From Flaccisagitta enflata (Eukaryota), in contig OZ231126.1 in assembly GCA_965153355.1 (NCBI GenBank), positions 1,364,001-1,428,000 of the forward strand: a stretch of DNA of 64,000 nt, written 5' to 3'. The position numbers were made by a program, and so were the translations under genes. Of this stretch, positions 77 through 5,513 are shown in pieces (positions within the stretch are counted from its first letter, which is position 1; the number at the start of each line of letters is the position of its first letter). Under the pieces are notes generated by a model. It did not search any database and had not been told where the DNA came from. It saw only the letters and a program-made list of their open reading frames with translations.

Positions 77-344
77 CATCATCCGTACATTTGAAACTTT
101 ATTTTGGCCGTTATTCGGCGTGGGAACTAAAGGCAGTGGGGGTGGTCCCCGCCCGATGCATACACCCCCTGAATGGATCGAGGAGAACAACCCCTGGCTA
201 GGGGGTTTGTTCCATCAGGGGGACTCGGTCAAATGGATCGCCCGATGGGCCGAAATTATGAGCGGATTTTATTACTTGATTATGATTATCATTTTGGTTA
301 ATATGCTCATTGCCATGATGAGTAACTCGTTTAATAGCGTTCAG
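77..344 (+). CDS. TRPC-like channel, copy 1, alternative pore+S6 exon A
   Basis: Splice sites ccgcag|C...CAG|gtaaaa. Encodes IIRTFETLFWPLFG (TRPC LFW pore helix) ... ILVNMLIAMMSNSFNSVQ (S6). 268 nt, phase 2 to 0. Confidence 0.88.
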
Positions 345-1446
345 GTAAAAGGCAAATATGTCTATGACTCGATATTAACACTCTCAGCATGCAAGTTGTG
401 TCATCCCAGCATCGTCCCTCCCAAGAGCGCGGTCAGTTTTTGGCATCTGTGATTTTGGACACAAAAACAACTCTTATTTAGTAATTCGTCATCAGTGTTT
501 TTTCAGGACTTCATGACCGAGTATCTCACAGAAGGAGTGTTTTGCAGTAAAGCTCTTTTTTTACAAATAACAGTTGTATTCAATAAACAGATAAGAAAAC
601 TCTTTATAAAAAAAAAAAAAAAAAAAATCAAATCAATGTTGATTTCATGTAACTTTTATTTTGACACATCCCCAAACACAACTTTCTTCAATTCACAAGC
701 ACGCGTTGAATAAACTATGCACTGCACTCACAGCTTGATCATATATGTAATCTTTATGTTTGATTGCTTGTTAGTAAAACAGACAGAAATACAAAAAATA
801 TTTCTGGATGAAACAAAACAGTACAAAACGATACAAGAACAGTTAAAACTAAGGATGTGGAGGCGGCTGACCGCTCTCCATTTGGAGGATAGGAAAGCTA
901 CTAGTATTTTCATTGTAAAATGGAAGCAAAAGCGTATGCGTTGGAAGCGGCATAAAAATCAACCGCTTCCACATCCCTGAACCTAAAACGCCCATTTTGA
1001 TATTACAAAATCAACAAAAAAATGCCCATATTGATGCCGCTTCCACTGCTTATGCCTCCACTTCCACTTCCACTTCTACTTCTACCGCAGTCACTTCCAC
1101 TTCCACTGCCATATCTGCTTCCATTTTTGCTTCTACCTCTGCTTTCGCTTGCGAATCTATTTCCACCTTTGTTGTCACCTCCACCTTCGCTCATGCTTCC
1201 ACTTTATTTCTGCCTCCACTCCCGCTTCCACTTTCTCTTTCAATCCCAATTCCACTTTTGCTTTTACCTCCGCTCCCCCTTCCAAATCTGTATTTGCCTG
1301 CGCTCCCGCTTCCAATTTCCGCTTCCATTTCCACTTTCACTTCATTTTGCAGCTTGAATATGAGTCAATCCCAGTGACCCAACCACCAGATATGAAAGTT
1401 GTAAATCGCTTCCACATCCTTAATTCCTTATAACCTCGATCCGCAG

Positions 1447-1625
1447 CATCTTGAAGACGTTCGAGGTGCTGTTTTGGTCGCTGTTTGGGATGCTGCAGAC
1501 GTCGGAGCGGGAGTTGCGGCAACCACCGCAGCAATTTGACGAGAATGATCCGTGGCACGAAGGTGTTATGGGAGATAACAAACTCGGAGTCTGGATGATA
1601 TCAGGATCATTAGAAATCATTCTAG
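1447..1625 (+). CDS. TRPC-like channel, copy 1, alternative pore exon B1
   Basis: Splice sites ccgcag|C...CTAG|gtgcgt. Encodes ILKTFEVLFWSLFGM...SLEIILG. 179 nt, phase 2 to 1. Confidence 0.88.
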
Positions 1626-1653
1626 GTGCGTTTTGTGCTACATTCTTTATACT

Positions 1654-3950
1654 TACCAATAAAGGCGGCTCTCGCCGACTGGAAAAAAGTCGTAAATGGG
1701 AGTTTTTTTTTGTGCATGTTCTTTTGTATGCATTTCATGATGCCTGGTTGACTGCCTGCCTGTTTTTGTCTCTTTTTTGGTCTTCCTTTATCTTTGAGTG
1801 TGTGTGTGTGTGTGTGTGTGTGTGTGTGTGTGTGTGTGTGTGTGTGTGTGTGTGTGTGTGTGTTTGTGTGTGTGTGTGTGTGTGTGTGTGTGTGTGTGTG
1901 TGTGTGTGTGTGTGTGTGTGTGTGTCTCTCTCTCTCTCTCTCTCTCTCTCTCTCTCTCTCTCTCTCTCTCTCTCTCTCTCTCTCTCTCTCTCTCTCTCTC
2001 TCTCTCTCTCTCTCTCTCTCTCTCTCTCTCTCTCTCTCTCTCTCTCTCTCTCTCTCTGTGAATATGTGTGTGTGTGTGTGTGTGTGTGTGTGTGTGTGTG
2101 TGTGTGTGTGTGTGTGTATTACGAATAGTCAACTACTGTAATTTTTTAGTTTGACTACTCAAGTGGCTTCCAACTTTTAATACATGATGTACTGAGCCTA
2201 AAATATAAATTTCATCATCATAGCTTGACAAAACCAATCGCCGATTTCCCTTTATTTATCACCACTCCAAGGTGGTTGTGGTGAAAATGTTGAAATTTGG
2301 TCACTTTGGGCTCAAAATCGGGCCACTTCGCTTTTGAAATTTGACCCAAAATCCATGAGATTATGAAACTAGAGCTCAAGAGCTAACCAGTGGTGCAATC
2401 CGCATGTTGCTATCATTTTTTGTTCAGATTTGAGAGCGTTTCAAAGATGGAAGGGTATGAGGGTTATTTTAACAGATGAATTATTTGGTCAATTTTGACA
2501 TTTTTTACAATTTTTGATATATCTCCGCTTTGGACGGAATAATTTGGACAAAATTGGTGACCAAATTGAAGATTTTTTGATGCTCTAAATGATTCTGGTA
2601 AAATTTTTGATCAATATGACCCTCAAAATTTTGGAAGACTCTAGAAGCAGGTGCTAAAATGTAAATTTTTTTTGCCATTTTGGCTACTTTGGTCACACAA
2701 TTTGGGCACTTCCGAGATAGAAAAAGACAAAAAATCCATGAGCAAACTAAACTACTGCTCAAGATCTAACCAGTGGTGAAATTGGCACATAGATTTGGCT
2801 GAGCTTCAAAGATCAAACTGACCAAAATTAACAAAAAAAATGTCATTTTATCATACCCACTGATCTTTGAAGCTCTTCCAAATCTAGTTCGGAAGTGCTC
2901 AAATTGTGTGACCAAGTAGCCAAAATGGTGAAAAAAATTACTTTTTAGCACCTGCTTCTAGAGTCCTCCAAGAAATTTGAGGGTCTTATTGATCAAAAGA
3001 TTTACCAGATTCATTTAGAGCATCAAAAAATCTTCAATTTGGTCACCAATTTTGTTCAAATTGGTTCATCCAAAGCGGAGATATATCAAAAATTGTAAAG
3101 ATGTCAAATTGGACCCTCAAATTCATCTCATAAAATAACCCTCATACCCTTCCATCTTTGAAAAGCTCTGAAATCCTAACAAAAAATGATAGCAACATGC
3201 GGATTGCACCACTGGTTAGCTCTTGAGCTCTTGTTTCATAATCTCATGGATTTTGGGTCAAATTTCAAAAGCGAAGTGGCCTGATTTTTGGCCCAAAGTG
3301 ACCAAATTTCAACATTTTCACCACCACCACCTTGGAGTGGTGATGAATAAAGGGAAATCGGCGATTGGTTTTGTCAAGCTATGATGATGAAATTTTTATT
3401 TTAGGCTCAGTACATCATGTATAAAAGATTGGAAGCCACTTGAGCAGTCATACAAAAAAATTACAGTGGTTGACTATTCGCAGTGTGTATGTGTGTGTGG
3501 GGGGGGTGTATGTCTCTCTCTGACTTTCTCTTTCTCTTTCCCTTTCTATTCTTTTTCTCTTTCTGTCTTTCTATCTCTCAAGCAGAGTAAAATGCAAAAG
3601 CTAGTGTCATAAAAGTCAATTTGTGAAACATCTTGACTCTTCTCACTTGTTACCTAGGGCCGAAAAATAAGATCAATGAAAAATATCGATTTTTTAAAAA
3701 ATGCAAAGAAATAAAAAAAGATTCTAAAATTCATAGCGCCAAAATTAATGATCGTAGAGGCTTCTGGTTGGCGCCATTTGAAAGAGAAAAATAAGCTCTT
3801 TCTTAGCTATGAATATCAAAAAATGTGTCATCCCAGCCCCAAAACGGCACAACATTCTAAAATTGTCCCAAATCCAAAATGGAAAACTTTATTTCTCCCC
3901 TGGCCCTATGTTTCAAAAAGTCGAATTACGTAATTCGACTTTTTTCCAAT
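1654..3950 (+). mobile_element. HINE/DINE-1-like non-autonomous element with internal microsatellites (contains a nested foldback)
   Basis: Begins ccaataaaggcggc, has subterminal inverted ggaaaaaagtcg/cgacttttttcc, and ends with the palindrome gtcgaattacgtaattcgac. An inverted copy lies at about 29518-30302. Confidence 0.55.
2122..3480. mobile_element. ~1.36 kb palindromic foldback/MITE, specific to copy 1
   Basis: cgaatagtcaactactgtaa...ttacagtggttgactattcg; the two ~640 bp arms are near-perfect inverted repeats. Confidence 0.85.
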
Positions 3951-4683
3951 TAGTCGCGTGTAATCGACTCTACATCCTGCTTTGTCTGTCCGTCCGTCCG
4001 TCGGTCGGTCGGTCGGTCGGTCGGTCAGTCACTCTGCCGGTCAGTTTGTTGGTCAGTCTGTTGGTCTGTCACACTTTTTTTTAAAATCTTATTTCTTTAA
4101 GTCATTTAAAGTCATTAAAGGGTATACTAAGTCATTCTAAGTGATTCTAAGTGATTCTAAGTCAATCTGTGAGTGTCGCACGCGACTAATAGGTGTTGGC
4201 CTTGTTTGGAAGAGCGCTGCTTCTAGATAACTCAAGCCACCAACTGATGATTGGTTGCGTTTGGAAGAGTTTAGGCCTTTGGCAACTCCAAAGAGTGAGA
4301 TCTATATTATTTTCATAACTTTTTTTGTTAAAAAGCAGCATTCTTGCAAGATTATTTTATATTATGAGGTGGGAATATTTCTGATTTAAGATAAGGAATG
4401 CTATTGAGACCTGTCACACAATTTTGACCGTTGAACACTTACAGTCAAACCATAAAAAGCACATTTCTGGCTGGACATATTAGATGGAGCATAAACAGTT
4501 TTCTTACAACTTTGGTCTTCTGCAGTTAAGATTTCACCTCACTTGGTCAACTGGAAGTGTGCATTTCATTGGTGTTAGTTGATTAGTCCCTTGTTTTCAA
4601 ACGCTCCTTTAAGCATTTACATCTTAACATCTTTACAAATGATTTTGATTCTTTTAAACTTGCTTGGCACAACGACGCATTAC

Positions 4684-5296
4684 GACGGTTGATTTTTGAA
4701 GGAAGAAACTCGTGTTTCAAACCACTTTTTGCATAATTAGTTGAACTAGTAAAGAACTACAAATACTTTTCTTGGGCAAATTGTCTCTAGGGACACTTGG
4801 TGTGTACATCTCTGTCATAAGCTGACCTCATAGGTCCCTTTAGATATGCAAATTACTTGAAATAAGTCAAGAAAATCAAGGTTTTTGTGAAATTTTGCTT
4901 ACATTTTTTTTTCTTTTTCTGTGGTTGAAATTCTAAGACTCTTAAATGCAGCAAAATTTTGCATTTTCAAAAACATAGTTCTCTTTGTAATTGAATTTGG
5001 AAGAGAACTATGTTTTCTATTTTTTCATTTTTTCATTATCTATGCAAATTTAGAATTTCAACCACCCCCTGTCAGTTAACAAAAATGAAATTTTCAGAAA
5101 TAAGCAGTAAATTTCCTTTATCAATCTTGGCCATATCAAGTTGATTTTTGTATTAGAATGTAAATCATGCAAAATATTATTAAGATCAACCTTTTTCACG
5201 GACTTTTTTGATACAATTATTTAGTTTTACTTAGATTTATATTTATATTTTAACCCTCGTTGAAACAAAAAATGTTGGCTTCGGAGGCTCGCCGTC
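4684..5296. mobile_element. Non-autonomous DNA transposon, 4-bp TSD TTAC
   Basis: ttac|gacgg...ccgtc|ttac; the empty site is in copy 2 near 28995. Confidence 0.7.
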
Positions 5297-5433
5297 TTAC
5301 GACTCACTGAAACCATGGGACATGGCCAATTTATCCTGTCCTAGGTTATGCCTTGCGCTATGCCACGTGTTCATGCCCCTTGTCCCACGACTCTTTTATC
5401 ATTCATCATCCACAATGCATCATGATGTTACAG

Positions 5434-5513
5434 GTGTCTTCCATCTGATGATGCTCATTATCATGTTAAATTTGTTGATCGCCATGATGAGTACCTCCTT
5501 CAATGATATTCAG
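5434..5513 (+). CDS. TRPC-like channel, copy 1, alternative S6 exon B2
   Basis: Splice sites ttacag|GT...CAG|gtactt. Encodes (G)VFHLMMLIIMLNLLIAMMSTSFNDIQ. 80 nt, phase 1 to 0, completing B1. Confidence 0.88.

Follow-up and report, generated by a model that had tools for sequence, protein, structure and literature searches.

The 64-kb stretch of Flaccisagitta enflata DNA analysed here (contig OZ231126.1, positions 1,364,001 to 1,428,000 of the forward strand; hereafter the window, to whose numbering all positions refer) can be assigned, by its sequence, as carrying the 3′ half of a gene for a TRPC-type cation channel, twice. Between an exon encoding the S5 segment and an exon encoding the TRP box, this locus contains two paralogous modules, designated here cassettes A and B, each of which encodes a pore helix, a selectivity-filter exit, an outer loop, and an S6 gate. 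Results of our genomic tests indicate that A and B are probably alternative, mutually exclusive pore modules of one channel gene. Mutually exclusive splicing had been proposed in an earlier note on this DNA, and each genomic test that we ran (phase, frame, paralogy, selection, and comparison with a parallel gene) agrees with it, while the splicing of both routes is what we infer from these tests.

Exon organization and reading frame

All exons described below lie on the forward strand. Cassette A of the first copy is a single exon of 268 nucleotides (nt) at 77-344, delimited by its AG/GT borders (...ccgcag/CATCAT...GTTCAG/gtaaaa) and its translation, and encodes the pore helix TFETLFWPLFG, a long post-filter loop, and the S6 segment LVNMLIAMMSNSFNSVQ. 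Its product reads TFETLFWPLFGV...NSFNSVQ, or, in another rendering, IIRTFETLFWPLFG...LVNMLIAMMSNSFNSVQ. Cassette B is split into exon B1 (1447-1625, 179 nt; ...ccgcag/CATCTT...TTCTAG/gtgcgt), which encodes the pore helix TFEVLFWSLFG and an acidic post-filter loop, and exon B2 (5434-5513, 80 nt; ...ttacag/GTGTCT...ATTCAG/gtactt), which encodes the S6 segment VFHLMMLIIMLNLLIAMMSTSFNDIQ. The joined B1 and B2 translation is TFEVLFWSLFGM...TSFNDIQ, also rendered as ILKTFEVLFWSLFG...MLNLLIAMMSTSFNDIQ. A and B share 42% identity along 86-89 residues (E 3e-18 in tblastn) and are thus paralogs. The exon coordinates and lengths given in the earlier note for A, B1, and B2 all hold and the translations match, as do the contrast of LFWP with LFWS and that of an unsplit A with a split B, both of which are seen in the translations and exon borders.

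Downstream of both cassettes lies the TRP-box exon (8598-8768), which starts in phase 0 and offers an acceptor common to A and B; it was located by a motif scan and by tblastn, in which E reached 9e-10 and the queries were 20 TRPC relatives of at least 500 residues, with P0011 left out. The S5 exon, which offers the common donor, is visible in the second copy at 23660-23807 (LFLLFGFAFIVGLTNLLWYYAGKV...APYYQ), where tblastn matched it to TRPC relatives in their S5 region; its end is in phase 2 (AA/gtaagt). It is followed in this copy by A (25099-25366), B1 (26345-26523), and B2 (29132-29211), the protein products of which are identical to those of the first copy and the borders of which are the same, with an AG acceptor and a GT donor throughout, and by the TRP-box exon (32154-32324), which differs from its first-copy counterpart by 4 nt and two residues (VT to AS) in a weakly conserved tail. 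The introns, in order, are of 1102, 3808, and 3084 nt in the first copy (from A onward) and of 1291, 978, 2608, and 2942 nt in the second (from S5 onward).

The end of the S5 exon shows a peculiarity of its own. A 63-nt unit comprising the last part of this exon and its donor (AA/gtaagt) is tandemly repeated within 23749-23905 (23749-23811, 23812-23874, and a partial third unit). Since read-through of the first S5 donor meets a TAA immediately, the second unit does not extend the coding sequence, and it might serve as a decoy donor. Beyond the B2 donor of the first copy, a 30-nt partial duplicate of the 3′ end of B2 is found within 5520-5560 (LMSTSFNDIM), and it is present as well in the environmental open reading frame (ORF) P0033.

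The lengths of the two modules are equivalent with respect to the reading frame: A (268 nt) and B1 plus B2 (259 nt) are both 1 mod 3. The S5 exon leaves two spare bases, A and B1 each open with one base (C) that completes the codon, and the TRP-box exon begins in phase 0. When seven exon combinations were translated, S5-A-TRP and S5-B1-B2-TRP were the sole open routes through the TRP box (EWKFSR). Inclusion of A and B together leads to a stop 30 codons into B1, skipping of both cassettes shifts the frame, and B1 alone, B2 alone, and A plus B2 each lead to an early stop. The claim that each route keeps the frame, while the inclusion of both modules shifts it, is thus borne out.

A and B could conceivably both be coding without being alternatives to each other, either because one of them belongs to an interleaved or upstream-initiated transcription unit or because A ends a truncated isoform within the A-B1 intron. 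We regard this as unlikely. The upstream exons are invisible for both copies, which leaves room for separate units with promoters and first exons of their own; in addition, the frame remains open for 35 codons past the A donor before a stop, and AATAAA-like words can be read in the A-B1 intron, as a truncated isoform would have it. Against separate units, the same 20 TRPC relatives revealed on either strand five exon types per copy at most, among them one S5-like and one TRP-box-like exon, so that A and B do not appear to belong to interleaved genes with S5 and TRP-box exons of their own. Moreover, the phase of A (1 mod 3) exactly suits the shared S5 and TRP-box exons, and a comparable exon pair in other TRPC genes, described below, also has one flanking exon per side. 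As regards a truncated isoform, the similarity of A to its relatives stops at the A donor. No third pore-S6 unit beyond the A and B types was found in the 64 kb by tblastn at E up to 10.

Family assignment and phylogeny

The assignment of the locus to the TRPC subfamily is supported by several lines of comparison. In a phmmer search of solved structures in the PDB with A as a query, TRPC3 came out on top (E 0.002), ahead of TRPC4, TRPgamma, TRPC6, and TRPC5, the E-values being weak for this query of 89 residues; NompC, TRPM4, and Nanchung scored below the TRPCs. The pore helix of A aligned to TRPC3 604-617 and its S6 to TRPC3 629-665, which indicates about 24 extra residues in the A loop between the filter and S6. 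Pfam recognizes Ion_trans at the S6 end of A (25.5 bits), and the closest full-length relatives, P0022 and P0042, contain the TRP_2, Ank, and Ion_trans domains. Both modules contain TRPC motifs (TLFWPLFG...LVNMLIAMMS in A and VLFWSLFG...MLNLLIAMMS in B), and the 20 TRPC relatives match A, B1, and B2. The TRP box EWKFAR has Ser in place of Ala here (EWKFSR), and its exon is 45-58% identical to the TRP-box regions of the relatives.

A phylogeny of A versus B had been proposed as a check. The maximum-likelihood tree of 23 pore-S6 modules, picked by hand out of 154 proteins and 80 loci, places the two as sister paralogs: sequences of A type and B type form one clade (98/95), which comprises a B clade (99/96) and an A clade (88/76). 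The path between A and B amounts to about two changes per site. The existence of the common clade, together with the length of this path, argues that the A/B duplication is lineage-specific and old. Judging by this tree, the duplication predates the split of the environmental relatives, and both of its products are still intact.

Purifying selection on both cassettes

The comparison of the two copies is informative with regard to selection. They differ at eight sites in A, three in B1, and two in B2, and all 13 differences are at third codon positions and synonymous, which confirms that the three exons are identical at the protein level in spite of the nucleotide changes. Of random changes in these exons, 20-27% would be synonymous. 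Neutral evolution would thus give the all-synonymous pattern with a probability of 3e-6 to 2e-5 in A taken by itself, of 3e-4 to 1.3e-3 in B taken by itself, and of 1e-9 to 3e-8 when the 13 differences are pooled. The introns that flank the cassettes differ between the copies by 5-18% mismatches, with indels in addition. That the copies were not simply homogenised is indicated by the two residue changes in the loosely conserved tail of the TRP-box exon.

Environmental relatives point in the same direction. ORFs P0001-P0003 encode A at 87, 81, and 86% amino acid identity, ORFs P0008, P0009, and P0010 encode B1 at 93, 95, and 100%, and the B2 peptide is 100% identical in P0015 and P0033. In each case the similarity starts after the Ser that reads through the AG/C acceptor and stops at the donor. 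Both A and B are under purifying selection.

These results bear on the explanation that only one cassette is ever spliced in, the other being a pseudo-exon relic of the duplication. In favour of this explanation, no transcript evidence was obtained for either route, and to the eye the polypyrimidine tract ahead of B2 looks weak (aatgcatcatgatgttacag). However, the differences between the copies are exclusively synonymous in both cassettes (8/8 in A, 5/5 in B), conservation in the environmental relatives reaches the exon borders of both and no further, and at a distance of about two changes per site both A and B have kept open frames, AG/GT borders, and matching phase. We therefore consider it very improbable that either of them is a relic.

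The second copy and the upstream region

In a self-comparison of the window, 1-13100 aligns collinearly with 25014-39563 at 81-97% identity, apart from kilobase insertions and an inversion. The earlier note spoke of a second copy of the gene, and this stands as far as the S5, A, B1, B2, and TRP-box exons are concerned, all of which are present; for its 5′ part it needs to be qualified, since no S1-S4, TRP_2, ankyrin, or other N-terminal exon was found by tblastn and a motif scan in 13100-23650, that is, in the 10.5 kb before the S5 exon of this copy. A scan of one frame of 13100-25099 (with stops as X) against solved structures returned low-complexity matches only. The region 13100-23650 is dominated by microsatellites of the (GA)n type. 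The 5′ half of the first copy lies beyond the window.

For the second copy, three readings can be considered: a partial duplicate, a copy with a very long intron (over 10 kb) in front of S5, or a second haplotype placed in tandem. An appreciable possibility, which we rate somewhat below even, is that it is not a second gene, but either the other haplotype, which the assembler would have set in tandem, or a 3′ duplicate that is partial and devoid of 5′ exons, in which case there would be one functional gene and the reading of the cassettes as alternatives would be unchanged. The collinearity of the copies at the above identity, the absence from 13100-23650 of any TRPC exon other than S5, and an exon divergence (1.7-3%) that is not below that of the best-aligned intron blocks are in favour of this possibility. 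On the other side stand the lack of any N in the window, the kilobase-scale insertions and the inversion between the copies, and the existence of a third intron variant of the B1 flank in the environmental ORF P0010, although these points do not decide the matter.

Several features distinguish the copies. In the B1-B2 intron of the first copy alone, 2122-2721 and 2883-3480 form a foldback inverted repeat with arms that are 92% alike, which is probably a transposable element insertion. In the second copy, 32429-36446, which is located 3′ of the TRP-box exon, contains about 3.5 kb of extra DNA as compared to the corresponding region of the first copy (8873-9394).

Proposed mechanism and the choice between the cassettes

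The explanation that we favour, namely the alternative use of A and B, would require the following history. An ancestral exon encoding the pore helix, the selectivity-filter exit, the outer loop, and the S6 gate would have been tandemly duplicated long ago; one descendant would have become A, which stayed unsplit, and the other B, which would later have been split by an intron into B1 and B2. In the mature mRNA, the place between S5 and the TRP-box exon would be taken by A in one route and by B1-B2 in the other, so that a common voltage-sensor-like domain and common cytoplasmic parts would bear one of two pores. Exclusivity would be policed by the reading frame: with the stop 30 codons into B1 or the frame shift mentioned above, mRNAs with both cassettes in or both out would be expected to go to nonsense-mediated decay. 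Exclusivity by frame and nonsense-mediated decay is thus a possible route, in which tissue-specific splicing factors would make the choice itself, and neither steric hindrance nor competing RNA pairing would be involved.

As to steric hindrance, the A-B1 intron, at 1102 nt in the first copy and 978 nt in the second, would be too long for steric exclusion. The donors are all GT(A/G), and none matches the U12 consensus. The search for complementary docking or selector sequences in the introns, which had been suggested as a check, yielded no pairing conserved in both copies. Taken together, the length of the A-B1 intron, the lack of U12 donors, and the lack of conserved pairing favour a regulated choice combined with frame-based quality control. 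A CU-rich run of about 60 nt precedes A in both copies. Such runs are binding sites of PTB-type repressors, and its position before A may be a hint of regulated choice.

Three candidate pairings were considered and rejected. The arms 26645-26801 and 29913-30116 are microsatellites in an inverted duplication present in the second copy only, the 17-nt match between 26564-26580 and 30268-30284 is part of the same copy-specific inverted duplication, and the S5-A and A-B1 introns share a 12-nt match of a kind that chance alone would give. The duplication in question (26564-26801 and 29913-30284) consists of an inverted copy of the B1 3′ flank, with its (TG)n(TC)n microsatellite, located 3′ of B2. 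As a result, complementary arms (157 nt at 89% and a perfect 17-mer) bracket B2; since they are absent from the first copy, we do not take them as a splicing device.

Several observations weigh against the alternative use of the cassettes. The support for both routes is genomic, and no transcript was seen. The protein collections searched yielded no spliced protein in which S5 and the TRP box are joined through A or B: neither A nor the TRP-box exon had a match among longer proteins, A matched unspliced ORFs only among proteins of similar length, and the close matches of a profile of A, B1, and B2 among 1.84 billion representatives were all unspliced genomic exon ORFs from environmental assemblies. 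For 23600-33599, a search of sequencing runs gave six metatranscriptome runs, which contain 5-14% of the sampled words, and one raw-read RNA run; these shares speak to neither expression nor habitat. The contigs of the relatives are shorter than 1 kb and do not show A and B in one gene. With no S1-S4 or N-terminal exon within the 10.5 kb upstream of the second-copy S5, the gene is visible only from S5 on, and there is the lack of conserved docking or selector pairing as well. Finally, should the copies be two haplotypes of a single locus, their 13 synonymous differences would be polymorphisms, which still indicate constraint, albeit over a shorter time.

Predicted differences between the A and B pores

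The pore helix, the filter, and S6 set permeation and gating in TRPC channels, and A and B differ in several of these elements. The residue that follows LFW is Pro in A and Ser in B. Among 86 instances of this motif in the fetched relatives, Ser was found in 41, Ala in 26, and Pro in two, both of the latter being A-type orthologs. After the filter FG, A continues with VGTKGSGGG, a sequence rich in Gly and Lys, and is free of acidic residues for 15 residues, whereas B continues with MLQTSERELRQ and has two Glu within ten residues. Over the loop from the filter FG to the shared Trp before S6, counts on the translations give four acidic and three basic residues in A versus seven and three in B. 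The distance from FG to S6 is 60 residues in A and 57 in B, the median of the 76 relatives measured being 47. Ca2+ permeation in TRPC channels and in Drosophila TRP is determined by acidic residues directly behind the filter. The contrasts of Pro with Ser and of Lys with Glu suggest that the two pores would differ in permeation.

Provided that A and B are indeed alternatives in splicing, a single gene would give two channels with the same sensors and cytoplasmic partners and with a different ion path. Such a pair would constitute a natural chimera with which to trace the pore residues responsible for Ca2+/Na+ selectivity and for the stability of the gate in TRPC.

Tandem pore exons in other genes

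A scan of metagenomes revealed, in 24 of 80 loci, two tandem, same-strand pore-S6 exons (designated a and b) that belong to another TRPC gene. These loci fall in the range L001-L031, L054, L078, and L079. In L001, for instance, the exons lie at 3563-3758 and 4105-4294; they measure 196 and 190 nt (1 mod 3 in each case) and are separated by about 350 nt, the a/b intron in general being of about 350-540 nt. In L001, L007, and L054, the pair is located between one S3-S5 exon and one TRP-box exon. The variable sites of the two exons are distributed over the first, second, and third codon positions as 22/13/49 and 19/11/48, so that third positions dominate in both; these counts come from 22-23 loci, many of them near-repeats of one host, with 16-17 distinct sequences.

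The a/b pair resembles A/B in that the same homologous exon was tandemly duplicated, in the length of 1 mod 3, in the presence of one flanking exon per side, and in purifying selection on both members. It differs in that its loops are short, both of its exons are unsplit, and its duplication is a separate one. In the tree, exons a and b from L001 and L054 group by type and not by locus, apart from A and B, which indicates that the a/b duplication is, as far as the tree goes, independent of the A/B duplication. No publication on the a/b pair was found in our literature searches. The same metagenome scan, in which distant TRPC exons of at most 36% identity over the full exon were retrieved, gave no close relative with both the A and B cassettes on one contig.

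Among the environmental ORFs, P0013, P0016, P0018, P0028, P0031, P0034, and P0035 are TRPC-like and read in frame through two pore-S6 units separated by very short spacers. The two-unit ORFs P0012, P0032, and P0039, likewise with very short spacers, are presumably NompC-like, as judged by S6 and TRP motifs of the NompC type. The two units of P0022 are an exact repeat, which looks like a model artefact, and P0011 is a degenerate array.

These cases are hints that the duplication of pore exons is widespread in invertebrate TRP genes. The independent TRPC duplication and the two-unit NompC-like ORFs together suggest a general, so far undescribed route of TRP diversification in invertebrates. It is conceivable, though we would put this forward tentatively, that the swapping of a whole pore module by mutually exclusive exons is a strategy that arose recurrently and independently in invertebrate TRPC genes and apparently in NompC-like genes, that it provides two selectivities or gatings per gene, and that the A pore would behave unlike the acidic B pore, being perhaps, for example, less permeable to Ca2+, in the manner of exon 12a of CaV3, which is discussed below.

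Comparison with known alternative pores

To our knowledge, the known diversity of TRPC channels comes from separate genes and heteromers and not from alternative pores. Searches of the literature found no description of alternative pore-S6 exons in TRPC, although supplementary genome-wide exon lists could hold a case; this accords with the earlier note, which knew of no described TRPC case. Insect TRP papers that name mutually exclusive exons refer to N-terminal first exons, and a crayfish paper only names mutually exclusive exons as a class of events. The A/B arrangement is very probably a genuine case of pore cassettes that exclude each other, its nearest known counterparts being exons 12a/12b of CaV3 and the pore splicing of TRPM3.

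In invertebrate T-type channels, an outer-pore swap by CaV3 exons 12a/12b determines whether the channel conducts mostly Na+ or mostly Ca2+, and a Lys encoded by exon 12a neutralises a pore Asp and makes the channel permeable to Na+ (PMC10120453, citing Senatore et al. 2014). In CaV3 alternative exons in one invertebrate channel gene change the pore, as they would in A/B, and A contains a Lys and is acid-free past FG, while B contains two Glu. However, CaV3 is a four-domain voltage-gated channel in which only the S5-P turret of domain II is exchanged. In A/B, the exchange would concern the pore helix, the filter exit, the loop, and the S6 gate of a subunit of a tetrameric TRPC channel, so that all four subunits would change. 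The parallel between A and exon 12a is no more than suggestive.

Splice variants of the pore loop are described for TRPM3 (PMC9290681). The likeness to A/B is that the pore loop of a TRP channel is altered by alternative splicing; the channel belongs, however, to the TRPM subfamily. The TRPM3 variants reportedly arise through the use of an alternative splice site, by which about a dozen residues are added to the loop, with S6 kept and with no duplicated exclusive exons, and this splicing is said to affect the permeation of divalent cations.

Mutually exclusive tandem exons at a pore-lining or adjacent transmembrane segment occur in CaV1.2 (exons 8/8a, IS6) and in the insect sodium channel para. 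As proposed for A and B, they are tandem duplicated exons that are used one at a time. Unlike A and B, they belong to other branches of the channel superfamily and concern one of four domains, and the pore helix is kept.

Other features of the window

Screening of the window against Rfam and with tRNA scans revealed no RNA genes. Minisatellite arrays with periods of about 30, 80, and 51 nt are located at 39741-41703, 60002-61659, 13326-13612, and 13671-14457, and the units of the 80-nt minisatellite at 13326-13612 are inverted relative to those at 60002-61659. A 251-codon open frame on the reverse strand (36476-37228) resembles DUF4735 weakly, its Pfam score (26.8 bits) lying below the cut-off of 31.2. 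On the forward strand, a 765-codon open frame begins at 61706 and runs past the end of the window (61706-64000); its matches to the Pfam families Exo_endo_phos, Exo_endo_phos_2, and RVT_1 assign it as ORF2 of a non-long-terminal-repeat retrotransposon.

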